A DNA stretch of 64,000 bases from Escherichia phage Jgk1: sequence record PV292302.1. One strand, written 5' to 3'. The position numbers and the translations under genes were made by a program. Each line of letters opens with the position of its first letter. The stretch's first letter is position 1. This document shows positions 1-13,106 of this stretch, in pieces. The notes beneath the pieces were generated by a model. The model ran no database searches. It saw only the letters and a program-made list of their open reading frames with translations, and had not been told where the DNA came from.

Positions 1-56
1 CTAAATTACGTGTATGGCATATTCCACAAGTACCCGGCAAACCTTTCTATGTAGAA

Positions 57-308
57 GTGGACTCTGTAGCCGAAGGTGTTAAGGTCATAAAAACCCTTGC
101 GTTATATGACCAGTTCCAGTTAGATAATAACATTAAAGGTGACTTTTCAAACATGAATGGACTTGATATGTATGACGAAAGTCTTACAGACCAAGACCTA
201 TCTGATATAGGATTAGAAGACCGCTGGATATCCTGGTACTACGAAGATGACAATGAATTCTTTGATGACCCAGAAAGGTATCTTGACTGGCTTGCTACGC
301 AATCCTGA
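57..308 (+). CDS. hypothetical small highly acidic protein (candidate DNA-mimic / anti-restriction)
   Basis: 83-aa ORF, about 21 Asp/Glu versus 5 Lys/Arg; followed by a strong terminator at 360-388; early-region position. Confidence 0.4.
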   Translation: MDSVAEGVKVIKTLALYDQFQLDNNIKGDFSNMNGLDMYDESLTDQDLSDIGLEDRWISWYYEDDNEFFDDPERYLDWLATQS

Positions 309-359
309 TTCTTTTTGTGGGTTGAAAAACCCCTGAATAACATTCCTTTGCTGTCTTTA

Positions 360-388
360 GCCCACCCTTGCGGTGGGCATCTTTTTTT
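360..388 (+). terminator. rho-independent terminator
   Basis: 7-bp GC-rich stem GCCCACC/GGTGGGC with 5-nt loop, followed by a run of 7 T. Confidence 0.6.
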
Positions 389-454
389 GATTATTATGGG
401 CATCCTTAGTCCATCATTCTGTCAAATGAAATCAACCCTTAACCAAGTTAGAAA

Positions 455-483
455 AACCCCAGCATTGTCTGGGGTTTTTTTGT
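455..483 (+). terminator. rho-independent terminator (second of a tandem pair)
   Basis: stem CCCCAG/CTGGGG with 6-nt loop followed by TTTTTTT; about 70 nt downstream of the first terminator. Confidence 0.6.
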
Positions 484-512
484 TTTGGTGTTTAATTAAC
501 TGGAGAGTAAAA

Positions 513-731
513 ATGCAGATTATTGAAGAAAGTATCTATGTACCATTCGCTGATATTGGATGCGGCGAATGCTTCCGTACTCAAAGGGACAACTCGAATA
601 TTTATATGAAAATTGCTCTTCATAATGGCGATGAAACCGCTGTTAACATTGAGAATGGTTGCGAACATGAAATCCTTAATAAGGATACCTTCGAGGTTGT
701 GCCAGTAACAACCAAGGTACATGTTAGATGA
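513..731 (+). CDS. hypothetical protein (72 aa)
   Basis: in-frame ATG at 513 preceded by GGAGAG RBS; the longer ORF 315..731 would cross both terminator hairpins. Confidence 0.35.
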   Translation: MQIIEESIYVPFADIGCGECFRTQRDNSNIYMKIALHNGDETAVNIENGCEHEILNKDTFEVVPVTTKVHVR

Positions 732-1081
732 TGGAAAAGAACCGCAGGAAGACACTCATCGAGCGTCTGCTTGCCCGTATCAAGATAATGGATATGGGCT
801 ATACCGTTAAGGGTCAACCTAGCCTATGCCACATCTGGACTGGTTCCCATTCAGGGAATGGTCGAGGTGGTCAATATGGCAGGATTTCCGTGAATGGAAT
901 TACCTCTGCTACACATATTGTGGCCTATACCCATTATCACGGATACATCCCCTGCAAGATGCAGGTAGACCATCTCTGTAATAACCGTTTGTGCTGTAAC
1001 CCCGAACACCTCGAACTGGTAACTCATCAGGAGAACCAGAAGAGAAGGGCTGCACGCCAAGCCAAAGGTAAAAAGAAATGA
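728..1081 (+). CDS. HNH endonuclease
   Basis: HNH motif ...VDHLCNNRLCCNPEHLELVTHQENQ...; ATGA start/stop overlap with the upstream ORF. Confidence 0.6.
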   Translation: MMEKNRRKTLIERLLARIKIMDMGYTVKGQPSLCHIWTGSHSGNGRGGQYGRISVNGITSATHIVAYTHYHGYIPCKMQVDHLCNNRLCCNPEHLELVTHQENQKRRAARQAKGKKK

Positions 1082-1263
1082 AAGATGAAGCAAAATTTGC
1101 TTTCTTTATTGGTGCTGTAGCTGGAATGTTTTTCATGGGGTTAGGTATGACGCATATCGGCCCCAATTCCAAAGCTAAAATTGATAGCTTAAAGGCTGAA
1201 TGTGAACTTAACATTCCTCGTAATGAATCCTGTGTAATGCAGTTCGTACCGGAGAAAAAATGA
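1078..1263 (+). CDS. hypothetical small membrane protein
   Basis: 61-aa ORF with hydrophobic segment FAFFIGAVAGMFFMGLGM; start overlaps upstream stop. Confidence 0.3.
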   Translation: MKDEAKFAFFIGAVAGMFFMGLGMTHIGPNSKAKIDSLKAECELNIPRNESCVMQFVPEKK

Positions 1264-1445
1264 CCCTAACTCGTACACAACAATCTACCCTGCGAATGAT
1301 TGCAGGTGGTTTAACTCGTGTTGCACCTAATAACAAAACTGCCATTGCTTTGAAGAAAGCTGGGCTGGTTTACCATAAACCTGCTTTTGGTTGGCTCCTG
1401 ACTGATGCAGGGAACCAGAAGCACAAAGAGCTAGTGGGTAAATAA
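1260..1445 (+). CDS. hypothetical protein
   Basis: 61-aa ORF, translationally coupled in the early operon. Confidence 0.3.
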   Translation: MTLTRTQQSTLRMIAGGLTRVAPNNKTAIALKKAGLVYHKPAFGWLLTDAGNQKHKELVGK

Positions 1446-1774
1446 TGAAAACTCTTTTAGCCGTTTTGTTGGTGTCAGCCTCTGTGCTGTCTTTCTCTGC
1501 CAAAGCCTCTGACTCATCAGATAATCTGATTGAGGCTGCTCAGGCATACCTCAATGAACCTATTGCCTATATCCAGCAAGGATACTTCATGGGCATGGTT
1601 CAGTTATATGGTGATAGCACAGAGAACTGCGTACCAGAAGGTCTTCGCTATCGTGAAGTAAACCAACGCGTAGCCCGTGTAATTGCTTATGACGCTAACG
1701 TCGTAACAATGCACTCGTCCTATAAAATCATGGAATACGCTTTCAACAAAGCCTATCCGTGCAAGAAACTTTAA
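1445..1774 (+). CDS. hypothetical secreted protein
   Basis: N-terminal signal-peptide-like segment MKTLLAVLLVSASVLSFSAKA. Confidence 0.4.
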   Translation: MKTLLAVLLVSASVLSFSAKASDSSDNLIEAAQAYLNEPIAYIQQGYFMGMVQLYGDSTENCVPEGLRYREVNQRVARVIAYDANVVTMHSSYKIMEYAFNKAYPCKKL

Positions 1775-1801
1775 TCATTAATTCCTAACAGGAGATGCAA
1801 A

Positions 1802-2149
1802 ATGAGCGACCGTACCCCCTCAACTGATGCCCTGGAAACTCTGGGCATGATTCACTTTAAGCCAGAACATCGTGATGCCATTCACTTAGCTGTTGAACCA
1901 GTGGTAGCTGGTTGCTCCCTGCGTATAGGACAGCGCATTGGTATTGTAAATGGTGTGGCTTACCCTGTTGGATTTAAAATCCAGTATGAAGGTAGTGCCT
2001 GTGAAGTAACTGCTCCTTACCACGGCATCGTTGACCCATTCCTGCCAACAGGACCACTCGAAGGCCAGAAGTTCTGGTTCGTAATGGCTCCACGGATGGT
2101 TACATCCTTACGTCATGTCTGGTCACACCCGGAGTTCCCTGATGAGTGA
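1802..2149 (+). CDS. hypothetical protein
   Basis: 115-aa ORF with AGGAG-like RBS upstream. Confidence 0.4.
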   Translation: MSDRTPSTDALETLGMIHFKPEHRDAIHLAVEPVVAGCSLRIGQRIGIVNGVAYPVGFKIQYEGSACEVTAPYHGIVDPFLPTGPLEGQKFWFVMAPRMVTSLRHVWSHPEFPDE

Positions 2150-2501
2150 ACCATTAGATATTAATGACGCTGCATTATGTGAAGCGTTGTTGTTAATGGG
2201 TGATGAAAAAGCCGTAGCCTGGGCATGGATTCAGGGTTATACCAAGAACCTGCTACAGGAAATTCAAGAGTATCTTGGTGATGTTGACTACGAATATCAG
2301 TCCAATGTCATTCAGGATGAATACGACTTAATGGAACTCGCTGACGGTCACCAGAATGGTAACTGGGGTGATTACATGATTGTTGGTGGACTCTTTGAAG
2401 GTAACGGCGTTGACCCGCTATTCTGGGACAAGTATGCAATTGTCCGTGGTATCCCTCGTGAAGAAGTGTCTGATAGTAACTTCTTCTCTTGCTCCTGTTA
2501 A
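2142..2501 (+). CDS. hypothetical acidic protein
   Basis: ATG at 2142 (MSEPLDIND...) overlapping upstream stop; the ORF-track start at 2115 is a non-ATG codon. Confidence 0.35.
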   Translation: MSEPLDINDAALCEALLLMGDEKAVAWAWIQGYTKNLLQEIQEYLGDVDYEYQSNVIQDEYDLMELADGHQNGNWGDYMIVGGLFEGNGVDPLFWDKYAIVRGIPREEVSDSNFFSCSC

Positions 2502-2512
2502 GGAATTAAATA

Positions 2513-3568
2513 ATGGCAAGTATCGACTCACTTGTTGTGTGTAACTCACGACAGGCTCGTAAGTTTGTTATCCGTACTTTGTTAGCAGGCAACGTTCCGT
2601 TCCTGACTTCATCTCCAGGTATGGGTAAATCTGCAATGATTCGTTCTATTGCAGAAGAATTTGGTATGAAGCTGATTGACCATCGTCTGTCTACTTCTGC
2701 CCCGGAAGACCTGTCAGGTCTGCCTCGTTTTACCTCAGATGGGCGTGCAGAGTTTGCACCATTCAATGACTTGTTCCCTCTGGAAGGGGATAAGATTCCT
2801 GATGGTTATAACGGCTGGCTTCTATTCCTGGATGAGTTTAACTCAGCCAAGAAGGAAGTAGTAGCTGCTGCATATAAACTGATTCTTGACCGTATGACTG
2901 GTCAGAAGAAATTACATGAAAATGTAATGATTGTCTGTGCTGGTAACAAACAAACTGACCGTGCCATCGTTAACCCAATGGGTACTGCAATGCAGTCTCG
3001 TGTGGTTCACTTTGAGATGGAAATGAATTTCGACATCTTTCTTGAAGATGTAATGATTCCTCAGAAGTGGGATGAACGTCTGGTTGCATTCCTTCATGCT
3101 AATACATCGTATCTGCATGACTTCGACCCAGCTCATAAGAACAAAACGTTCTGTTGTCCTCGTACATGGGACTTTGTTAACAAAGACCTTAAGAACCAGG
3201 CTCCTGGGGCTTTACCAGATGAAGATTCCCTCTATTATGCTGGTCATGTTACGGCAGGTAAGGCTACAGAATTCGTACAGTTTACTCAGGTTTATAACCA
3301 ACTGGTCACTATCGAACAGGTAGTTAAAGACCCGAAAAATGCACGATTACCCCAGGACAACAACCTGTGCTGGGCTACTGTTACATATCTCGCTAACAAG
3401 ACTACGGTAGACAATTTCCCAGAAATTGTGGAATACATTCAGCGTTTCAACACGATGACGCATCGTATTCTTTACTTCCGTGCAGCCAGTAAGATGTGTC
3501 CAGATGTCACTGGTTTACCAGAATGGCGTCAGGCTGCTGCTTCCCTGTCTCGTTACTTACACGGATAA
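2513..3568 (+). CDS. AAA+ ATPase, MoxR-like
   Basis: Walker A SPGMGKS, Walker B-like LLFLDEF; RBS AAGGA upstream. Confidence 0.7.
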   Translation: MASIDSLVVCNSRQARKFVIRTLLAGNVPFLTSSPGMGKSAMIRSIAEEFGMKLIDHRLSTSAPEDLSGLPRFTSDGRAEFAPFNDLFPLEGDKIPDGYNGWLLFLDEFNSAKKEVVAAAYKLILDRMTGQKKLHENVMIVCAGNKQTDRAIVNPMGTAMQSRVVHFEMEMNFDIFLEDVMIPQKWDERLVAFLHANTSYLHDFDPAHKNKTFCCPRTWDFVNKDLKNQAPGALPDEDSLYYAGHVTAGKATEFVQFTQVYNQLVTIEQVVKDPKNARLPQDNNLCWATVTYLANKTTVDNFPEIVEYIQRFNTMTHRILYFRAASKMCPDVTGLPEWRQAAASLSRYLHG

Positions 3569-3575
3569 AACAATA

Positions 3576-4748
3576 ATGAACCAGATACCTCAGCACACAC
3601 TTAGCGACGACCAACTGATGCGTGAATATGACCGTATTCAAGCTCAGGCATTCTTAGGTAAGAGTGCAGCTTTCTTTGGTTCGTTGCTGTGTAGCCTTAA
3701 ATTCTCATGGCAGCGTGAGAATTGTGAGACAGCTCAGACCGATGGTATTGAGCTGCAATTTAATCCAGACTTCTTTGTCTGGATGTGCCCAGATGCCAGG
3801 GAAACCGTGCTTATGCACGAACTCTGGCACGTAGCTTATCTTCACGGCATCCGTCAGGGTAGTCGTGATGGAAGCATTTGGAACGAAGCCTGTGACCATT
3901 TCATCAACCTTCAATTAGAAGCTGATGGTTATAAGTTCACTGGCATAGAAGATTGCTGCAAAGACCCACACTATATTGGATGGGTCGAAGAAGACATCTA
4001 CGATGACCTCATGAAGAACCCACAGAAAAGGCGTAAGCCGTCTGGTGGAATCTGTGATGGTCTTGCTGGCGACATGGTTACCCTCGCTTCAGGGTTGTCC
4101 CAGGGTGCTGTCGTCAACAACGTAGTACGTGCAATGCAGCAACAAAAACTAGCTGGTGGAACATTAGCTGGACAGGGTGCAGGGCGTTTAGAGGAAGTGA
4201 TTACTCAGTTCCTTAAGCCTGTAGTTCCGTGGCAGCAAGTCCTAATGGACTTCTTCACTGACATTGATGACACACGGTATACGTGGGCAAGACCTAACCG
4301 TCGGTACACTGATATCTATCTGCCATCTCTGGAAGATGATGAAGGACGTTTAAGACACCTGGTTTACTTCGAGGATGTATCCGGTTCTATTAGTAAGGCT
4401 GATTCTCTGCGTTTCAACTCAGAGGTTGCTTACGTTAAAAGTCAGTTCAATCCTAAAAAGATGTCTCTGGTCACTTTCGACGATATTATTCAGAACGAAA
4501 TTAATATCACCGAGGAGGATTCCTTCGAGGAGATTAAAATTACAGGACGTGGAGGCACTAGCCTCATTCCTGTACGTGACTGGATTATCAAACATAAACC
4601 AACGGCTGCTATCATCTTCTCTGATATGCATGTTGCTCCAATGCAAGAACTCCCGTTTGATATTCCTATCATCTGGGTTTGTTTAGGAAACCGTAGTGCT
4701 ACTGTACCTTTCGGTGAACTCTTACATATTGACCCAGGAATGAAGTAA
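3576..4748 (+). CDS. VWA-domain protein with N-terminal HExxH metallopeptidase-like motif (DUF2201-like partner of MoxR ATPase)
   Basis: HELWH motif and MIDAS-like DVSGS motif; immediately downstream of the AAA+ ATPase; start taken at first ATG after upstream stop. Confidence 0.55.
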   Translation: MNQIPQHTLSDDQLMREYDRIQAQAFLGKSAAFFGSLLCSLKFSWQRENCETAQTDGIELQFNPDFFVWMCPDARETVLMHELWHVAYLHGIRQGSRDGSIWNEACDHFINLQLEADGYKFTGIEDCCKDPHYIGWVEEDIYDDLMKNPQKRRKPSGGICDGLAGDMVTLASGLSQGAVVNNVVRAMQQQKLAGGTLAGQGAGRLEEVITQFLKPVVPWQQVLMDFFTDIDDTRYTWARPNRRYTDIYLPSLEDDEGRLRHLVYFEDVSGSISKADSLRFNSEVAYVKSQFNPKKMSLVTFDDIIQNEINITEEDSFEEIKITGRGGTSLIPVRDWIIKHKPTAAIIFSDMHVAPMQELPFDIPIIWVCLGNRSATVPFGELLHIDPGMK

Positions 4749-5254
4749 TGGTTATCAACGGAAAAGCTCTCTTTCACTCATCCCAACTACTCGATATACC
4801 TGACCGCAAAGTCTCACACCTAGGTGTAAGCTTTGGTCTGGGTGAAGCTGGTTATGATATTCGTATCAAACAAGATATAACCTTCTATCGTTTATTTGGG
4901 TTGATTCCAATGGTGAAAACTGTCGATGGTGAGACGGTAACTCGTCGCTTCGGTAAGTTTGCATTGGCTTCAGCAATAGAGAAGTTCAACATGTCACCGT
5001 CCTGCGTGGCTATCGTTCACGATAAGTCAACATGGGCTAGACGTGCTTTATCTGTATTTAACACCGTAATAGAACCAGGATGGAAAGGGTACCTTACCCT
5101 CGAACTGGTCTATCACGGTCGTAAGAAGTTACATATCCCGGCAGGTTCCGGGATTGCCCAAGTGTTATTCCATTTGGTTCAAGAACCTGCCCATTATGAT
5201 GGCAAGTATCAGAACCAAGAAAACCAACCTGTAGCTGCAAGAAGCAGCAAATAA
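4748..5254 (+). CDS. dcd: dCTP deaminase-like (dUTPase fold)
   Basis: C-terminal region ...IEPGWKGYLTLELVYHGRKKLHIPAGSGIAQV... resembles the bacterial Dcd pattern IDPGWSGCIVLEFYNSGK...; 168 aa. Confidence 0.6.
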   Translation: MVINGKALFHSSQLLDIPDRKVSHLGVSFGLGEAGYDIRIKQDITFYRLFGLIPMVKTVDGETVTRRFGKFALASAIEKFNMSPSCVAIVHDKSTWARRALSVFNTVIEPGWKGYLTLELVYHGRKKLHIPAGSGIAQVLFHLVQEPAHYDGKYQNQENQPVAARSSK

Positions 5255-5263
5255 GGAAAAATC

Positions 5264-5467
5264 ATGTCAGTATTTACTACCAAGACTCAATCCGGTCTGA
5301 AGACAACTGTAGTAGCAGCAAACGTTGCATTTGTAACTTGCGATGAGGGTAAAGCAACTATTCACTTTGCTGGTGGTGCTGTTCTTCCTACTGATGTAGG
5401 CTATGACTCAGTACGTCGTAATGTAGCTAAAGCACTCGGCAAATCTGCCGAAGCTGATACAGAGTAA
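5264..5467 (+). CDS. hypothetical protein
   Basis: 67-aa ORF with GGAAAAA-type RBS. Confidence 0.4.
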   Translation: MSVFTTKTQSGLKTTVVAANVAFVTCDEGKATIHFAGGAVLPTDVGYDSVRRNVAKALGKSAEADTE

Positions 5468-5575
5468 GTAATACCTGGGCTGAAATGAAGCCAAGGCATT
5501 TACCTGAATAGCCCTGCATCGTAGGGCTATTTGGGGAAGTTCCTTCCTTCCATTGCTTATCCATCTCCTATCCAA

Positions 5576-5600
5576 AGCCCACCTAACCGTGGGCTTTTTT
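5576..5600 (+). terminator. rho-independent terminator
   Basis: stem AGCCCAC/GTGGGCT followed by TTTTT; a second perfect 8-bp hairpin lies at 5508-5530 without a T-run. Confidence 0.55.
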
Positions 5601-5616
5601 AATTACAGGAAACGTT

Positions 5617-6042
5617 ATGTTTACTCGTCAATACGGTAAGTCTAACCTCATTGAAATGTTACTGGGTATGGACTTCGGCAAGTTGGAACAAACTGCATTG
5701 CAGATTGGGACAGGAATACATGATTCAATTGTTGTTAGTACCCCAACTGCCCGCAACGATAGTCAAGAAGATGCAATGGTTGTAATGCTGCAATATTTGC
5801 AACAAGGTCTTACTGGTACATTTGCAAAGCAACTACGGGCAGATGAGTTTGAATGTAAACCCACTCCTCACTGCCAGAAACTGGTATACAACATCATTGA
5901 TGGCTTTTGGACTAAAAACTCATTGGGATTATTTGGTTTATACAAAGAACAACTTGATAGGAATCCCAAAACCAAAGACCTGTTTAAAAGTAAAAGCACC
6001 ACTCACCATTACCCGTGGTACAGAAGAGGCAGCAAATACTAA
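5617..6042 (+). CDS. hypothetical protein
   Basis: 141-aa ORF after an intergenic region carrying a terminator. Confidence 0.4.
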   Translation: MFTRQYGKSNLIEMLLGMDFGKLEQTALQIGTGIHDSIVVSTPTARNDSQEDAMVVMLQYLQQGLTGTFAKQLRADEFECKPTPHCQKLVYNIIDGFWTKNSLGLFGLYKEQLDRNPKTKDLFKSKSTTHHYPWYRRGSKY

Positions 6043-6488
6043 TGCGTATCCCATTCTTAAACAAAAGGAAAGTAATTCCGAGTCTATTCCAGAAAGGGAT
6101 TGAGGATGAATTTGCACTTAATAAAAAGGCTCAAGAATACATTGTGACCCTGTTTGTGGGCATTCACTCAAGTGCAGAAGTACCACTCACTTTCATCTTT
6201 GAACAGGTGTTTGTTGTGTACAATCTGGCCTTGTTTTCTGGTTCCCACGAAGTGAGTGACCAAGCTCGCATAGCCCTGCAAAAGCTCCGTAGCGAGTTTG
6301 AGGAGCTAAATACTAATGTTCCATACATAATGGATGCATTTACGTCTGTGGCCTGCTCTAAGGCTCTGCAAATGGGCATTCCAATCTTACAATCACTACC
6401 CCGTAGTGAATTTAAGCTAGCCTATGTGCAAGCCAGAAAATTAACAGAGTCAGGCAATATTTTAACCTACCTTGAGACTCTAAGATGA
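6042..6488 (+). CDS. hypothetical protein
   Basis: ATG at 6042 overlapping upstream TAA (TAATG). Confidence 0.4.
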   Translation: MRIPFLNKRKVIPSLFQKGIEDEFALNKKAQEYIVTLFVGIHSSAEVPLTFIFEQVFVVYNLALFSGSHEVSDQARIALQKLRSEFEELNTNVPYIMDAFTSVACSKALQMGIPILQSLPRSEFKLAYVQARKLTESGNILTYLETLR

Positions 6489-7486
6489 TTAGTGCAAAAG
6501 TGATTGCTGACAGTATCCATTCGGAGACTGGAACACGTATCACAACGTTTGAACTGGTATACCCACGTTTCATTCATAGTGAGTTTATGACTCACCGTAT
6601 CTTCAACCGTAATGCCTCTAGCAGTCGTGCAATCCCTACCGACCGTTTCATTGAACAGGTTCGTACTAGCCCAGTATTTCCAAGCTACTGGGGTAAGAAC
6701 CAGAAAGGTATGCAGGCATTTGAAGAACTGTCTGAAGACCAACGTAGTGATGCAATCTTTATCTGGGACCAGGCTGCGTCCAGTGCTGCTACCTATGCAG
6801 AAATGCTGCGTCGTGGACAAGTCCATAAGCAGATTGTTAATCGCATTCTGGAACCATTCACACACATTCGTGTGGTAGTAACCTCAACCAGCTGGGCTAA
6901 CTTCTACGGCTTGCGTGACCATAAGGACGCACAACCGGAGATTCGTATCCTGGCTCAGGAGATGAAAAAAGCCCATGCTGAAAGTAAACCTACGAACCTT
7001 CACTGGGGTGAATGGCATCTTCCGTATATTACTGCTGCTGATTCTGCTAATGCTTATAATCATTGCAAATATCAACGAGTTACGAGAGATGAGCCAAATA
7101 GTGAGGAGATTTATGGTCTGCTACTGAAAGTGTCTGCTGCACGATGTGCACGAGCTTCCTACAATAACTTTGAAGGTAAGCCATCCACTCTAGAAGAAGA
7201 CCTGAGTTTGTTCTCTAAGCTAGTAGAAGACCAACCTATTCATGCTAGTCCTACTGAGCATCAGGCAACACCTATGCGTCGTTCTATGCCATACGTAAAC
7301 AACATGAACCCATCTACGTGGGAACAAGGTGTAACGTCTATGGATAGAGAAGGCAAATTGTATTCAGGTAACATCCTGGATTTTATCCAGTTCCGTAAAC
7401 TCATTCCTGGCGAAACAATCACAAAGGAATCTGACTATAAAAAACGTTGCGATGAGGTTTTACTTTCTCGTAATGGCAGAGTCTGA
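6485..7486 (+). CDS. thyX: flavin-dependent thymidylate synthase (ThyX)-like
   Basis: motif ...THRIFNRNASSSRAIP... resembles the ThyX RHR-x7-S signature; lies next to dCTP deaminase. Confidence 0.45.
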   Translation: MISAKVIADSIHSETGTRITTFELVYPRFIHSEFMTHRIFNRNASSSRAIPTDRFIEQVRTSPVFPSYWGKNQKGMQAFEELSEDQRSDAIFIWDQAASSAATYAEMLRRGQVHKQIVNRILEPFTHIRVVVTSTSWANFYGLRDHKDAQPEIRILAQEMKKAHAESKPTNLHWGEWHLPYITAADSANAYNHCKYQRVTRDEPNSEEIYGLLLKVSAARCARASYNNFEGKPSTLEEDLSLFSKLVEDQPIHASPTEHQATPMRRSMPYVNNMNPSTWEQGVTSMDREGKLYSGNILDFIQFRKLIPGETITKESDYKKRCDEVLLSRNGRV

Positions 7487-7653
7487 TTGTGTTGTTTGGT
7501 TTGAACAACTATTAAGGCAATCGCAATGTCCGAAGATGATAAAAACGTACTGTGTAACTTTGTTGGACAGTACTGGGATTTATTCCAACAACACTGTGCC
7601 GAATCGGGGGATGACCCTAATCGCATTTATGAAGAATTAGGTGGAGAGCCTGA

Positions 7654-7899
7654 ATGAAAAAGCTCACTATTTACGCAATGATTGCTAGCTGTATCATTTC
7701 ACTGATTTATGTAATTAAGCTTCAGTGGTTCATAGAAACTGATATTCAGTTCTGGCGAATTACTGCCATTAATGCACTAAGTGAGTTTGGTGTACTGTGC
7801 TTCTATTACTACGCTCGTGACTACGAGGCTATTAAGGCGCAGGAGGAACATACTAAACGTGTTATGGGTATGTTCTACGGTAAGGAACCAAAAGAGTAA
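7654..7899 (+). CDS. hypothetical small membrane protein
   Basis: N-terminal hydrophobic segment; followed by a terminator. Confidence 0.4.
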   Translation: MKKLTIYAMIASCIISLIYVIKLQWFIETDIQFWRITAINALSEFGVLCFYYYARDYEAIKAQEEHTKRVMGMFYGKEPKE

Positions 7900-7904
7900 A
7901 CATA

Positions 7905-7930
7905 AGACCTCCTCCGGGAGGTCTTTTTTT
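7905..7930 (+). terminator. rho-independent terminator
   Basis: stem AGACCTCC/GGAGGTCT followed by TTTTTTT. Confidence 0.6.
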
Positions 7931-7956
7931 GATTCTATTAATGTCCGGGAGGACTT

Positions 7957-8283
7957 ATGTTAAACCCTAATATTGTACACAGTAAGACAGGTGAACTTGT
8001 TCCTCTGGACTCTGTAGCTACCGTTGAAGATATTCTGGCTTGCCCAGCAAATATCGCAGCACTTTGTATGTGCATCGTGGAGCTAACTAAAGAGCGTAAG
8101 CTCTGGCTGGAACCAAGCAAAGAGATGGTTCAGGCTGGTTTGGCAGAAGTTCAATCCATGCTAGATAGTTGGGAAGATGATGGCACATTGTCTTATGGAG
8201 CCGCAGATGATATCTCCGATGTAAAAGCATCTGATATGGCTGTATTTGTATTACAAGCTATGGCTGGTAAACGTAATGGCTGA
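7957..8283 (+). CDS. hypothetical protein
   Basis: 108-aa ORF. Confidence 0.4.
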   Translation: MLNPNIVHSKTGELVPLDSVATVEDILACPANIAALCMCIVELTKERKLWLEPSKEMVQAGLAEVQSMLDSWEDDGTLSYGAADDISDVKASDMAVFVLQAMAGKRNG

Positions 8284-8394
8284 TATCTGGTTAGCCTTAT
8301 TAATATTCGTAAGTAACTTCGGAGCGTTATTAGGATTTGCCGTCATATTACTAGCACTATTTTCATAAGCTGCATTCTATCTGGAGAGTTAAAA

Positions 8395-11004
8395 ATGCAA
8401 GTTGCAGATTCACGTCAGTTAACCACCTCAGCAACCCTGGGTGGGCAAGAAGCTATTTCCTTTGGTATCTCGGAAGACCCGGCATTCTTTCAAATCCTGA
8501 GTTCATCCCTATATAACAACCCAAATCTGGCAGTAGTCCGTGAGACTATCTGTAACAGTTGGGATGCTCATATTGAAGCAGGATTACAGCATGTACCTAT
8601 CCTAATTCACCTGGATGAAGATGGCTTCATTCGCTTCCGTGACTACGGTAAGGGCATCCCTACCGATAAAATCGGTGAAGTATACGGCACTTATGGTGCA
8701 TCAACTAAGAAGGCCAATACTGCAACCACTGGTGGTTTCGGTTTGGGCTGTAAGTCTCCATTTGCTTATACGGATAGCTTCCAGGTTACTTCTATGAACC
8801 AGGGTAAGATGTCCATTTATAACGTTACCAAGTCTTCTATTGAGACTAATGGTAAACCGGGCATCATCCCAATCATAACTGGAGTAGATACTGACCAGAC
8901 TGGTCTGGAAGTTAAATTCCAGATTCGCAATGAAGATGTTAACGAGTTCGTTCGTTACATTGAATCCATCGTTTATAACGGCGAGATTAAGGCAGTATTA
9001 CGTCGCCGTGTATTAACTACTCCTGGCGAAATGTCAGAGCAAGACCGTGAATTGCCTGTATTAGGTATGTCTTTTGAGCCTGGTTCATTTGACTTCTCAG
9101 GCACATGGCATCGTAATTACATGGGTAGTCACGCTGTATATGTTCGTTATGGTAACGTCATGTATCCAGCTACCCAAAGCCCAGCTACTGAAGAAGCTCT
9201 GGGGTTAATCCATAACTTCATGAACATCATTGGTGCTTCTCGTATTGTTGTACAAGCTGCACCGTCTACACTGGCTATTGCCCCAAGTCGTGAAACGCTA
9301 TCAAACCAGAAAATGACAGATGATGGTATTACTGATATCTGCGTTAATCTGGTAGATAAACTGGAAGCTTTGTGTAAGGAAAAAATTCCTGAAGCTATTA
9401 AATACATTGAAAAATGTATTAAAAAGGATACCAGTTATAGCTGGTATGGATATCCTAACTTCCTGTATTATCTCAACGACCACATGGTTCGTGGATACAT
9501 GGCATCTAGTTTATGGTCTAAACAGTATAAGCATTACCTTAAGTACTGGGAAAACCTTTCCAATAAACGATTCTTTGAACAACCTGAGTTCCAGGGTTTT
9601 AACTGGAACCAGAACAAAGCAATGAAAGCTCTGCGTAAATCTCGTAGTGGTGGAAACACACGTCCATTGTCCAAATTCTTGCAGCGTTACGCTGTATTAC
9701 CAACACTGGCTAAGTGGGCAACTGCTGGGCATGTGTTCTCTGGATACATCATTGGGCAGGGAATGTATGGTTGTGCTCTATATAAGTACAACATCAGCCA
9801 CTGGCTAAAGCACGCTAGTACTAGCAATATTCTTGGGCTGTTAAAAACCAAGAACGTTGTGATTACACGTCGTATGTCTGACTGTGCTGAATCCTTTGAC
9901 TTCTTCCCTGAATATCACGGTAGTCAATGGCGGGAGGCTTGCGAAGAAAACCCTGGGCATGTTTATAACAAATCTGCCTTAGTAATCCATGTGGGTCCAA
10001 AGGAAATTTATGCTACAGAAGCTGTGGCTAAATGGTCTGCTCTTGGTTATCGAGTTATCGACTTAACCCAAGATAATGACTGGGATGAACCAGCAAAAAT
10101 TCGTAAAAACATTGCCAAGGTAGCGGCTGCTGAGCGTGCTCGTAAAAAACAAGCATTATTAGATGCAGGTATGAAAGGCTCAGAGCCTAACAGACTGATA
10201 TCTATTAATTGCTTAATTGGTGAACGTCTTTATATCAATAATGACCGTAAAACTGCCACTATGCCCTGGATTTCTTATGACTATGCTGCACCGGAAACAT
10301 GGAAGAAAAATAACCATGTGGACGTACCGGAACCAGTGTATTACGTAACTCAGAAGGACATTTACCAAGGTAAGCCGAAAGACAATCCTAGGATTGGCTC
10401 TATGCATACCTGGAATGACCTAACGGAAGAAGTTCGTGCTGTAACTATCATTTGTCGTAATAAGACTGAGATTAACAAAGCCGTTAAACGTGGTGCTGTT
10501 CATCTTGATGATAAACGTTACAAAGAGCTATTTGGTGTAATTACTACCAAAAAGTTCAAAAAGTACGTAACAGAAGAACGTTTAGGCTTCCTGGGATATC
10601 TGAACATGGATAGTGGTGAATGGCATGAACTGTTAAAGATACTGGGTATCAAACATAAAGTCCTCGACTCTATGGTTGACCGTCCAGAGTTTAACTGGGC
10701 TTACGATTTCTTGAATAGCAATCGCTATTATGACCGTGAAAAGTTAGTTCAAATGAAACTGATGGACAATACTGATGGACTTGCTCCATACGTAACGTTA
10801 ACTCATCTGAAGTCATTTAAGCACTTACAAACACTGTGCGATTTAAAAGGTATCTTCCATAGTAGTGAAGTGGGAGGACCATTGTATGGCACTTCCATAG
10901 AAACTGTATTGGATTGGGTTAAAAAACACCCGGAAGATATTCCGGCATATAAGACCCTAATTCGTAATGCAATCACCAAACGTAAAGGTATATACATCCG
11001 ATGA
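8395..11004 (+). CDS. rIIA: rIIA-like protein (GHKL-type ATPase fold)
   Basis: N-terminal Bergerat-fold N-box-like motif LAVVRETICNSWDAHIEAG; 869 aa; followed by a coupled large partner ORF; GGAGAG RBS. Confidence 0.5.
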   Translation: MQVADSRQLTTSATLGGQEAISFGISEDPAFFQILSSSLYNNPNLAVVRETICNSWDAHIEAGLQHVPILIHLDEDGFIRFRDYGKGIPTDKIGEVYGTYGASTKKANTATTGGFGLGCKSPFAYTDSFQVTSMNQGKMSIYNVTKSSIETNGKPGIIPIITGVDTDQTGLEVKFQIRNEDVNEFVRYIESIVYNGEIKAVLRRRVLTTPGEMSEQDRELPVLGMSFEPGSFDFSGTWHRNYMGSHAVYVRYGNVMYPATQSPATEEALGLIHNFMNIIGASRIVVQAAPSTLAIAPSRETLSNQKMTDDGITDICVNLVDKLEALCKEKIPEAIKYIEKCIKKDTSYSWYGYPNFLYYLNDHMVRGYMASSLWSKQYKHYLKYWENLSNKRFFEQPEFQGFNWNQNKAMKALRKSRSGGNTRPLSKFLQRYAVLPTLAKWATAGHVFSGYIIGQGMYGCALYKYNISHWLKHASTSNILGLLKTKNVVITRRMSDCAESFDFFPEYHGSQWREACEENPGHVYNKSALVIHVGPKEIYATEAVAKWSALGYRVIDLTQDNDWDEPAKIRKNIAKVAAAERARKKQALLDAGMKGSEPNRLISINCLIGERLYINNDRKTATMPWISYDYAAPETWKKNNHVDVPEPVYYVTQKDIYQGKPKDNPRIGSMHTWNDLTEEVRAVTIICRNKTEINKAVKRGAVHLDDKRYKELFGVITTKKFKKYVTEERLGFLGYLNMDSGEWHELLKILGIKHKVLDSMVDRPEFNWAYDFLNSNRYYDREKLVQMKLMDNTDGLAPYVTLTHLKSFKHLQTLCDLKGIFHSSEVGGPLYGTSIETVLDWVKKHPEDIPAYKTLIRNAITKRKGIYIR

Positions 11005-13106
11005 AAACTGAAATGTTAACCATCATCGCACTTGCCGTTGATTCCCGTAATCTGACAATGTGGAAACCTGACGGCTACACTGTCATTATCCCACAGGGCG
11101 ACCATCGAGTCGCCCGTATCGTAGCTGAGGCTAAAGAGAAAGGGCTACGCCCAGGTCATCCTGTAGATGTAGATGTTGCTGAAGTTGCTACTATACGTAC
11201 TGAGTTCAACGATGCAGAGAAGAACACTAACGGCCTCGTTAAGTTCTTCAAAATGGCTAAGTCCAAATTCCTGGAGTTTATTCAGGATGGTACAGGCGAG
11301 GATATTGCACCCCTGGTTCCAAATATTAAGTTGGGTTCCCCAACCGAACAATTGGTAACCAAAGCAGTAGATACGTTCGTAGCTGTAAGACAAGCTGTTA
11401 AACCCGTTGAGGTAACTGAAGTAGATGGTGATTACGATGTTCGTAATAACATCATCTGGGTTACTGGTTTTGACAAAAACCATGACCGTGTTTCGCTTAT
11501 CCGCTTCATCATGGACATTACTAACCGTAATACGGAAGATGCTGGACTATTAGCTAATACAGAGTGGCCTATTGCCCTGGCATCGGTAAGTGATGACGTA
11601 GCATTTGAGTACAACAAACGTGCTCAGCAAATCAATGGCGTTAAGTTTATCATTACTGATACAGACACTACACCTGAGGCGTATGTCGAACCAGTAATTA
11701 AAGCCCAACCTGGTGCAAAACCGCAGGTAACTAACAAAGATAAGCTCAATGCTGCATCTGAAAAGCTGCAAGCACTGGGTGCAATCGGCACTGATAATGC
11801 AGACTTCCATAAAGATGTTAAGGCAGACGAGGTTGTCGTTGCTGTTACCCCTGCTGGTGTAGTTCCAGGTGTTGAAAACCTTCAACGTCACCTACGTCAG
11901 GCATCTAAGCTGAAAGATTATAAAGGCTTTAACCGCTTCCTTGAGCGTCTGGCTCCAGTGGTTAAAAACCGTCGTCACTCAGCGGAAGACCTGATGAAGT
12001 TCATGGAAACAGCAGAATTGCCTATTGCAGATGATGGCTGCATTCTGTTCCTGAAACGCCTTAAATACAAACACACAGATGATAGTGGTCGTCGTGTATT
12101 TGTGGATTGTCACTCCGGTAACATCCGTCAGTGGGTAGGCTGTAAGGTACAGGTACGTGAAGACCTGGTAGACCCAGACCGTCGACGCGACTGTTCTAAC
12201 GGCCTCCACGTAGCATCTATGAGTTACATTACTGGCTTCTCTGGTGACGTTACTATTCTCGGTAAAGTTGCACCAGAAGACGTATTTGCTGTGCCAGAAT
12301 ACAGCACTAATAAAATGCGTGTATCTGCATATCACATCCTGGCAGAGCTACTTGAAAAAGAACGTGTAAACGTTAATTCAGGTACGTATCTGTCCAAGAC
12401 TGATGTGGGCAAAGTACTTCTGAATAACGCAATCGTTGGTAACCATAAATCCCCTACTGACCTTGTTGTAGTAGGTGGACATAATGGTAGCAACCTGACG
12501 TATACAACGTTATCGCAAGTGACTCAGGAACAAATCCGTACTGTTGCTTCTAAAGAAGCAATCAATATGGAAGAGAAACTGAACGACGTACTTGCTGCTG
12601 AACCAGTGACACCTGCTGATGTTAAACCTGTAACTGAAACCTCGGTTGAAATCAAACCGCCTAAGGCTCCTACTGTGAAAGAACAAATCTTGGAACTTGT
12701 AAAAGAATTCCAAAATGCAACTTCTCCAGAAGATAAGTTAGCTGCTGCTGACTTGCTGGTAGAACTGCGTGGTAAAGCTAAGAAACCGTGGGGTGCATTC
12801 GGCGTTGATAGTTCAATCGTTGAACGCATTGCTACTGTTCGTGCAATGCACCAAACCCCTGCTGAAGCAAAAGCTAAAGCTGAACCAGTGAAGGTAAGTA
12901 AGCCTAATAAGCCTGCTGCTAAACCTGGTAACGGTAAGCACGCTGATACTATCCGTAGTTGGCTCAACGATAGTGGCATGTCTGATTATCAGAAAGCTCA
13001 TTCTATCCATGACCTGAAACGTGCTGCTAAAAAGTCATACTTTGCACTTGGTCTGTCTCCAGACGAAATCAAAGCTATTGACAAGCTTAAACATCACCTG
13101 AAGTAA
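11001..13106 (+). CDS. rIIB: rIIB-like protein (putative)
   Basis: 701-aa ORF with ATGA overlap to the rIIA-like gene; assignment by synteny only. Confidence 0.3.
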   Translation: MKTEMLTIIALAVDSRNLTMWKPDGYTVIIPQGDHRVARIVAEAKEKGLRPGHPVDVDVAEVATIRTEFNDAEKNTNGLVKFFKMAKSKFLEFIQDGTGEDIAPLVPNIKLGSPTEQLVTKAVDTFVAVRQAVKPVEVTEVDGDYDVRNNIIWVTGFDKNHDRVSLIRFIMDITNRNTEDAGLLANTEWPIALASVSDDVAFEYNKRAQQINGVKFIITDTDTTPEAYVEPVIKAQPGAKPQVTNKDKLNAASEKLQALGAIGTDNADFHKDVKADEVVVAVTPAGVVPGVENLQRHLRQASKLKDYKGFNRFLERLAPVVKNRRHSAEDLMKFMETAELPIADDGCILFLKRLKYKHTDDSGRRVFVDCHSGNIRQWVGCKVQVREDLVDPDRRRDCSNGLHVASMSYITGFSGDVTILGKVAPEDVFAVPEYSTNKMRVSAYHILAELLEKERVNVNSGTYLSKTDVGKVLLNNAIVGNHKSPTDLVVVGGHNGSNLTYTTLSQVTQEQIRTVASKEAINMEEKLNDVLAAEPVTPADVKPVTETSVEIKPPKAPTVKEQILELVKEFQNATSPEDKLAAADLLVELRGKAKKPWGAFGVDSSIVERIATVRAMHQTPAEAKAKAEPVKVSKPNKPAAKPGNGKHADTIRSWLNDSGMSDYQKAHSIHDLKRAAKKSYFALGLSPDEIKAIDKLKHHLK

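Follow-up and report, generated by a model that had tools for sequence, protein, structure and literature searches.

A MoxR-type ATPase and a VWA protein with a putative metallopeptidase domain: the gp24/gp25 gene pair of the N4-like Escherichia phage Jgk1

What would an N4-like phage use an ATP-driven protein machine for in the middle phase of its infection? The question is raised by two adjacent genes of Escherichia phage Jgk1, an N4-like podophage whose genome (PV292302.1) provided the 64,000 nucleotides analysed here, referred to below as the window. Both genes are open reading frames (ORFs) on the + strand within positions 2513-4748, where a preliminary description made from the sequence alone had placed them and had read them as a MoxR-like ATPase paired with a VWA protein carrying an HExxH motif. 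The observation is real and the interpretation is right. Judged by sequence families and gene order, however, the feature is already known: the genes are the orthologues of gp24 (an AAA ATPase) and gp25 (a vWFA protein) of phage N4, and the window gives no new leverage on the client of the pair. As a general mechanism, an ATP-driven chaperone-protease is reasonably probable. The two genes are the following.

2513-3568, + strand: gp24-like AAA+ ATPase of the MoxR/dynein/midasin clade, 351 amino acids (gene A)
3576-4748, + strand: gp25-like protein, 390 amino acids, with a DUF2201_N putative zincin metallopeptidase domain, a linker and a DUF2201 VWA domain (gene B; PF13203, PF09967 and phrog_1314; start taken from homologues)

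The ATPase and its metallopeptidase-like partner

Gene A had been described as a Walker A/B ATPase with the P-loop SPGMGKS, and both Walker motifs are present, together with the other elements expected of such a protein.

2612-2632, + strand: Walker A motif (P-loop) SPGMGKS, amino acids 34-40; G38 and K39 invariant
2678-2725, + strand: DHRLSTSAPEDLSGLP segment, strongly conserved in alignments, between strands beta2 and beta3, putatively where this AAA+ clade has its helix-2 insert
2819-2839, + strand: Walker B motif LLFLDEF, amino acids 103-109; D107 invariant, E108 invariant in phages
2936-3004, + strand: sensor 1 CAGN (N145) and candidate arginine finger MQSRV (R163), each invariant
3155-3169, + strand: CPRTW motif with invariant P216, R217 and W219, a candidate sensor 2 where the helical lid/C-terminal domain begins

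The residues K39, D107, E108, N145, R163 and R217 (the last in the PRxW motif) are invariant in 26 ATPase homologues. Comparison was extended to 14 divergent pairs with 22-45% identity to the window proteins, drawn from three Schitoviridae subfamilies, roseophage CRP-7, two jumbo phages, one rV5-like phage, five plasmids, a Mesorhizobium contig and a Methanobacteriota metagenome-assembled genome (MAG). In these distant ATPases K39, D107, N145, R163 and R217 are still invariant, whereas E108 varies and is an Asp in a Burkholderia plasmid copy by pairwise alignment. G69 and P71 of the DHRLSTSAPEDLSGLP segment are likewise invariant, plasmid and archaeal copies included. Between beta2 and beta3 there is a highly conserved 40-residue insertion (amino acids 59-100), modelled as a low-confidence loop with short strands at a predicted local distance difference test (pLDDT) score of only about 50-56.

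In the predicted structure the ATPase is closest to the MoxR/dynein/midasin (helix-2-insert) clade and not to classical AAA, Clp or RFC proteins, and sequence and profile searches of the PDB returned only midasin (E 7e-5, the sole PDB sequence match) and PspF. At the level of family profiles the protein clears the generic AAA model of Pfam alone, with 27.6 bits against a cut-off of 21.2, and it stays below the curated cut-offs of the MoxR-related profiles (AAA_5 18.5 bits against 22, bpMoxR 12.4 against 27, and no AAA_3 match); no NCBIfam model matches either the ATPase or its partner. The ATPase also has its own C-terminal helical domain of about 130 residues, which is conserved with the ATPases of other DUF2201 partners. 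In PHROG it weakly matches a 'porphyrin biosynthesis' (CobS-like) family with E 4e-5. A chelatase of the CobS/CobT or BchI/BchD type was considered and rejected, as this weak match is all that points to it and there is no CobT or Mg-chelatase match in Pfam or NCBIfam.

Two variations of the ATPase gene were seen elsewhere. The Burkholderia plasmid ATPase (locus L020, 5888-6913) has LDD in place of LDE in its Walker B motif, an exchange of the catalytic Glu for Asp that may point to slow hydrolysis or to ATP being used in a switch-like way. In phages U1G (MZ394712.1, 9882-11813) and JA-1 (NC_021540.1, 19536-21175) the match to the ATPase is broken into two, and the records annotate an HNH homing endonuclease gene beneath it, which suggests that the conserved gene was invaded by a homing endonuclease.

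The product of gene B is made up of two domains joined by a linker.

3624-4331, + strand: DUF2201_N domain, amino acids 17-252
3816-3845, + strand: HELWHVAYLH, with HExxH (HELWH, amino acids 81-85; H81, E82 and H85 invariant) and H90 (at least 90% conserved)
3882-3896, + strand: NEACD motif (N103, A105 and D107 invariant), D107 being a candidate third zinc ligand
4290-4304, + strand: RPNRR motif, amino acids 239-243, in the low-confidence linker (R242 invariant in 14/14 divergent homologues)
4359-4733, + strand: compact VWA domain, amino acids 262-386
4374-4388, + strand: MIDAS motif 1 DVSGS, amino acids 267-271 (D267, S269 and S271 invariant)
4551-4628, + strand: MIDAS Thr (GGTS, T328) and MIDAS Asp (FSDM, D350), each invariant

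The first domain matches Pfam PF13203 DUF2201_N, a 'putative metallopeptidase domain', with E 6.6e-57 (193.6 bits against a cut-off of 23.2) over profile positions 3-270 of 271, and the second matches PF09967 DUF2201, called 'VWA-like', with E 1.6e-35 (122.3 bits). The HELWH and the MIDAS-like DVSGS reported earlier are both where they were said to be, at nucleotides 3816-3830 and 4374-4388. They are not a matter of chance, because HExxH and DxSxS occur together in 0.1% of 20,000 composition-preserving shuffles of gene B, because they are invariant in homologues, and because the Pfam families match. In 25 close partners H81, E82, H85, H90, N103, D107, D267, S269, S271, T328 and D350 are invariant; in the 14 distant partners H81, E82, H85, N103, D107, D267, S269, S271, T328 and D350 remain so, and H90 is conserved in at least 90%. 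Since these residues and those of the ATPase are invariant in close and distant pairs alike, the ATPase, the zinc site and the MIDAS are all under selection throughout the family.

A fold search of the model finds the VWA alpha/beta fold for the C-terminal half, which contains a complete MIDAS of the form DxSxS ... T ... D, and VWA_CoxE, the partner of the MoxR-like CoxD, is matched by 4 of the 25 homologues. For the full-length model two fold searches gave VWA matches only, and sequence and profile searches of the PDB with the gp25-like protein gave nothing significant. The core of the N-terminal domain is predicted to consist of three short strands (amino acids 42-62), a helix with HELWH (72-87) and a helix with NEACD (99-116), a topology that would resemble a minimal zincin. 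Two residues are candidates for the third zinc ligand: D107, on the second of these helices, and H90. An hhalign comparison of the family with E. coli SprT/YggI is in register at HExxH, with a probability of only 7%. In the linker, W..RPNRR..Y.P is conserved from phages to the archaeal MAG, within amino acids 213-258, where the AlphaFold2 pLDDT is below 50; RPNRR is a candidate docking or regulatory element. Structural similarity to both MoxR and VWA domains was thus found, the point on which the preliminary description had made its reading depend, and the notion of a MoxR/VWA chaperone-like pair draws support from the Pfam families, the clade-level structure match, the complete MIDAS and the pairing of the genes.

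It is worth noting that two metagenomic homologues of the partner contain inteins, P0261 (701 amino acids; intein at 111-414) and P0248 (519 amino acids; intein at 98-247), one of them large and the other a mini-intein. They have Hint / Intein_splicing Pfam matches and can be written as ...WNFA/C...VVHN/CDIRINN, with slashes at the junctions. The insertion site corresponds to A105/C106 in the NxAC/D motif, window position 3894/3895. As a rule, inteins settle in the most tightly constrained positions of proteins that cannot be dispensed with, and their presence here marks the motif as functionally central, with D107 as the candidate third zinc ligand. Intein and homing-endonuclease insertions are both typical of conserved, indispensable sites and speak for the importance of the pair.

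In many databases the gp25-like protein has a different name. It belongs to phrog_1314 (E 1.5e-129), a family labelled 'HNH endonuclease', and the name appears in many RefSeq and pharokka records (e.g. NC_070850.1 gp38). That the protein really is an HNH endonuclease has next to no probability: no HNH Pfam domain is found in the 25 homologues even at E <=10, DUF2201_N and DUF2201 cover the full length, and the C-terminal half has a VWA fold. At the level of sequence families this identity is refuted, and the label is probably an annotation error that has spread from record to record. The gene of this region that is really HNH-like is probably the 117-amino-acid ORF at 728-1081, whose counterpart in the related phage Moo19 is annotated as N4 gp22-like HNH.

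Orthology with N4 gp24/gp25 and genome setting

The 2.2-kb region of the pair has matches in 71 phage records, the top one being Shigella virus Moo19 (Schitoviridae, Enquatrovirinae) with 82% nucleotide identity, followed by coliphages of the ECBP1, IME11 and St11Ph5 types at about 80%. In gene order Moo19 is collinear with the window. In N4-like phages gp24 and gp25 are two of the 14 core genes, listed with function 'unknown' (PMC4193335), and they had already been remarked on in roseophages in 2009 (PMC2784036). According to PMC4193335, which cites Kazmierczak and Rothman-Denes, the N4 genes are middle genes. The window shares with N4 the gene order RNAP2 - pair - dCTP deaminase / thymidylate synthase / rII / DNA polymerase and the same PHROG families, and the order around the pair is identical in Moo19, KPP21 and Ruegeria phage V14. 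Orthology is read here through the 'N4 gp24-like' genes of LUZ7 and LIT1, which match the window ATPase at 38-39% identity, and through PHROGs and synteny, rather than from the N4 proteins themselves. Nothing essential sets the Jgk1 pair apart; the ATPase is 89.7% identical to that of Moo19 and the partner at most 85.2% to those of Gamaleyavirus-type coliphages. Literature searches on DUF2201, N4 gp24/gp25, Schitoviridae metallopeptidases, MoxR in virion proteomes and the middle genes of LUZ7 found no experimental data on any member. CRISPRi-ART has been used with N4 solely for rII.

Several described systems share parts of this design. In group 2.2 jumbo phages, Iyer et al. (2021, PMC7824862) reported a MoxR ATPase together with a vWA protein that has an N-terminal metallopeptidase, and proposed that the two act as chaperone and cochaperone while the virion is assembled and proteolytically processed, on the model of the pair known from Acidianus two-tailed virus (ATV). 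The three-domain logic is the same, and WPEC3, 7t3, PBECO4 and 121Q match both window proteins, although at about 27% identity and with longer jumbo-phage proteins. The neighbourhoods differ as well, with virion and Hsp70-like genes beside the jumbo pair and replication and nucleotide-metabolism genes beside that of the window. With CbbQ/CbbO, NorQ/NorD, RavA/ViaA, CoxD/CoxE, midasin and ATV p618/p892 the pair has in common the AAA+ clade by structure, a VWA partner with a full MIDAS, and operon pairing; NorQ, NorD and BchD are among its structural matches. Unlike the gp25-like protein, however, these characterised VWA partners have no N-terminal HExxH domain, and sequence similarity to them is marginal. 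MoxR-vWA pairs of this kind act as chaperones in remodelling or in assembly (PMC7159879 gives a list). In that paper Kaur et al. (2020) also described vWA-MoxR ternary conflict systems, in which effectors, occasionally a metallopeptidase, are fused to the vWA protein. There the N-terminal effector on vWA and the MoxR ATPase are the same, and some homologues of the window pair sit in conflict-type neighbourhoods. The phage pair differs in having no adjacent third component (VMAP, beta-propeller or FtsH-like), in matching the bpMoxR model only weakly, as given above, and in being a core gene pair borne by the invader. FtsH, and Cdc48 with Wss1/SprT-type proteases, are functional analogies only, in that a motor and an HExxH protease act on a captured protein; they belong to another AAA+ clade, the protease of the phage pair is on a separate VWA polypeptide, and kinship with SprT is without statistical support.

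In the window an AGGA ribosome-binding site lies 8 nucleotides upstream of the ATPase start. The start of the gp25-like gene is the ATG at 3576, 7 nucleotides past the ATPase stop, because close homologues begin at the methionine of MNQIPQ. The GTG at 3480, taken mechanically as the ORF start, was rejected, as the close homologues all begin with MNQIPQ and this corresponds to the ATG at 3576. The pair had been placed in an early-middle operon next to nucleotide-metabolism genes, which agrees with what follows it.

4748-5254, + strand: dCTP-deaminase-like gene in the transcription unit of the pair, its ATG overlapping the gp25-like stop (TAATG)
6485-7486: ThyX
8395-11004: rIIA

The transcription unit ends at a strong terminator-like hairpin at 5574-5597, and another hairpin lies upstream at 449-482. 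Over window positions 1-12000 in general, matches to sigma-70-like promoters are depleted (10 found, 25 expected) and terminator-like hairpins are enriched (18 against 9 expected, including those at 449-482 and 5574-5597 and a bidirectional one at 7904-7925), a combination that fits transcription by a phage RNA polymerase. The sign of the GC skew switches near 30 kb, as expected for the strand switch between the early/middle and late regions of N4-like genomes. Directly upstream of the ATPase there are two small overlapping ORFs, 1802-2149 and 2115-2501, which match the N- and C-terminal halves of phrog_11912 (226 amino acids), and the two are therefore fused in some phages. The Moo19 counterparts are separate with an 8-nucleotide overlap, which suggests that the real start of the second ORF is the internal ATG at 2142.

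Linkage and distribution of the pair

By tblastn, no fewer than 682 phage records contain the gp25-like partner; for the ATPase the figure is 823. An exhaustive HMMER search gave 11,731 cluster representatives at 50% identity with E <=1e-3. Homologues are also present in 89 plasmid records, 30 of them conjugative and 24 mobilizable. A scan of genome contigs for exact peptide patterns was made as well, with a reach limited to close relatives; several of its matches are contigs of phage size that had been binned into MAGs. The ATPase and DUF2201 genes lie side by side, or no more than about 3.5 kb apart, in all the contexts examined. This applies to N4-like phages of three subfamilies, including Moo19, KPP21 (with an SF1 helicase and DNA polymerase after the pair) and Ruegeria phage V14, and conservation extends over the Schitoviridae of Alpha-, Beta- and Gammaproteobacteria. 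Elsewhere among phages, MazG and DNA polymerase adjoin the pair in CRP-7, DNA polymerase I is downstream in Rhizobium phage TM3_14A, rIIA is near it in rV5-like phages, and the genes are linked in the jumbo phage Cassandra. In the jumbo coliphage WPEC3 virion and Hsp70-like genes precede the pair, and DprA and thymidylate synthase follow it; in cyanophage S-TIM54 the order is Hsp20, MoxR, DUF2201, virion protein and ThyX. In the Methanobacteriota MAG a 1455-amino-acid UvrD-like helicase adjoins the pair.

The window ATPase is homologous to those of the plasmids, the archaeal MAG and the rV5-like phages, and in the plasmid and archaeal proteins the match (27-29% identity, E 1e-31 to 3e-20) takes in the C-terminal helical domain as well. 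The ATPase and its DUF2201 partner have therefore travelled together. In Synechocystis pSYSA and a Sphaerotilus plasmid the genes are found amid toxin-antitoxin, DUF262 and Sir2 genes. Plasmids of Burkholderia, Cupriavidus and Rhodovastum have a unit of three genes instead, ATPase, a conserved protein of about 300 amino acids and DUF2201, beside genes for PRTRC, ParB, DUF3991-Toprim or a type IV secretion system. The middle gene was located in three of the loci.

L020, 7013-7942: middle gene of about 300 amino acids
L022, 8073-8990: the same
L023, 8066-8965: the same

Its product has no Pfam match, and no phage counterpart was seen in the window or at 12 other loci; it could be a client or an adaptor.

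A further observation concerns thymidylate synthase. A ThyX or ThyA gene is located about 1.5-4 kb downstream of the pair in N4-like phages and also in the unrelated WPEC3 and S-TIM54 (window 6485-7486; L013 8678-9607; L026 9826-10497; L016 8568-9461). This proximity may reflect a shared early/middle timing. Some N4-type blocks turn up in unexpected records. The Acinetobacter baumannii 'plasmid' pRBH2-3 (NZ_CP110465.1, locus L021, 75,126 bp, circular) has one with a phage-type RNA polymerase, an AAA ATPase, HNH and a VWA-like protein; in size it is like an N4-like phage genome, and what was deposited as a plasmid is probably the genome of a phage. An N4-like block of ATPase, DUF2201, dCTP deaminase, ..., ThyX occurs in contig2 of Mesorhizobium yinganensis (L004, 727 kb, at 434,974-448,110), and others in large bacterial contigs of Roseococcus (L003, 297 kb) and Dyella (L007, 123 kb). 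Either integration of a relative or an artefact of assembly could account for these blocks, which are unexpected for a family regarded as strictly virulent.

Possible mechanism and clients

Taken as a chaperone-protease, the pair would work as a two-component, ATP-driven machine in the middle phase of N4-like infection, alongside the genes for replication and nucleotide metabolism. The gp24-like protein would form a ring of the MoxR type, on which the gp25-like protein would dock, and the metal ion of its VWA/MIDAS site would grip the client by an acidic side chain, in the manner of midasin, CbbO and the integrin I-domains. Hydrolysis of ATP would then remodel or partly unfold the client, and the N-terminal HExxH zincin domain would cleave it. 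The analysis itself establishes the AAA+ and VWA folds, the invariance of the catalytic residues, the constant linkage of the two genes and their orthology to N4 gp24/gp25; ring formation, the physical interaction, proteolysis and the client are what we infer from these, together with what is established for MoxR-VWA systems such as midasin, CbbQO, NorQD and RavA-ViaA. Given how strongly the pair is conserved across Schitoviridae of different hosts, a conserved client, either a core protein or complex of the phage or a universal protein of the host, is more likely than a defence protein that evolves fast.

Two kinds of client can be considered within this chaperone-protease mechanism, and they are rated about equal, each being possible with a rather low probability. 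In one case the pair would serve virion morphogenesis, as a chaperone of capsid or tail assembly or of the packaged giant RNA polymerase, and would process a structural or scaffolding protein. The jumbo-phage proposal and the role shown for the ATV MoxR/vWA pair, as PMC7824862 presents them, argue for this, as do the WPEC3 pair behind virion structural and Hsp70-like genes and the S-TIM54 pair between Hsp20 and a virion structural protein. In N4-like phages some structural genes lie in the early/middle region near gp24/gp25 and a prohead protease is absent from the 14 core genes (PMC4193335), and Moo19 has a decoration-protein gene in its middle region. The location of the N4-like pair fits less well: its strand is that of the early and middle genes, RNAP2 lies to one side of it and dCTP deaminase/ThyX/DNA polymerase to the other, and the late structural block is a long way off. 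In KPP21, CRP-7 and TM3_14A the pair abuts a helicase or DNA polymerase gene, and plasmids, which make no virion, have homologous pairs too. These same neighbours favour the other case, in which the pair would remove or cleave a host or DNA-bound protein (a nucleoid, replication, transcription or immunity factor) so that the element can replicate. The genes are a middle pair beside replication and nucleotide-metabolism genes in at least four phage lineages, 89 plasmid records carry a homologue, those examined having PRTRC, ParB, DUF3991-Toprim, type IV secretion or toxin-antitoxin/DUF262/Sir2 neighbours, the archaeal copy is next to the UvrD-like helicase, and documented conflict systems include vWA-MoxR modules with peptidase effectors (PMC7159879). 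Counter-defence genes, however, tend to be accessory and to evolve fast, in contrast to this core pair with its roughly 50% identity across distant hosts. No known defence or anti-defence model was matched, PADLOC giving only a sub-threshold DolB, and the chaperone and virion neighbours in the T4-like and jumbo lineages do not fit host takeover. Put in its broadest form, and quite tentatively, the proposal would be a MIDAS-targeted, ATP-driven metalloprotease found across mobile elements, phages (in their early or middle phase) and conjugative plasmids alike, that cleaves or strips one conserved host or DNA-bound protein for the replication of incoming DNA.

Other explanations do without a protease, or without a task in the phage's own cycle. 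Most characterised MoxR-VWA pairs mature metalloenzymes, and the Jgk1 proteins might in the same way be a chaperone that inserts a metal cofactor without proteolysis, like CoxD/E, NorQ/D, CobS/T or BchI/D, with HExxH as a metal-binding site. The VWA_CoxE matches in 4 of the 25 homologues, the weak CobS-like PHROG match of the ATPase, and the structural matches to NorQ, NorD and BchD all lean that way. It is nevertheless unlikely, since the invariant E82 of HExxH corresponds to the catalytic base of zincins and would be unneeded for mere metal binding, and since no candidate metalloenzyme is conserved beside the pair across lineages. Of the neighbours in the window, ThyX is a flavin-dependent enzyme, and the dCTP deaminase-like protein needs no metal for catalysis. 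Still less can be said for a phage-borne exclusion or abortive module directed against competing phages or plasmids. The pSYSA and Sphaerotilus plasmid contexts look like defence islands, and rII and superinfection-exclusion-like genes occur in the same region of N4-like genomes. Exclusion cassettes, however, are not typically universal core genes with fixed synteny, as this pair is in Schitoviridae, and no PADLOC model matched.

What the window contributes is confirmation, the correction of the 'HNH endonuclease' label, and comparative hints. The genes gp24 and gp25 are among the very few that are common to every N4-like phage. Were the broad proposal of a metalloprotease shared by phages and plasmids true, it would be a new class of host-takeover machine, and the cellular copies in defence-type islands would be the same tool aimed at invaders. 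For the Schitoviridae, a family increasingly used in phage therapy, finding the client of the pair would close one of the last gaps that remain in their core biology, and it would give the large DUF2201 family its first function.

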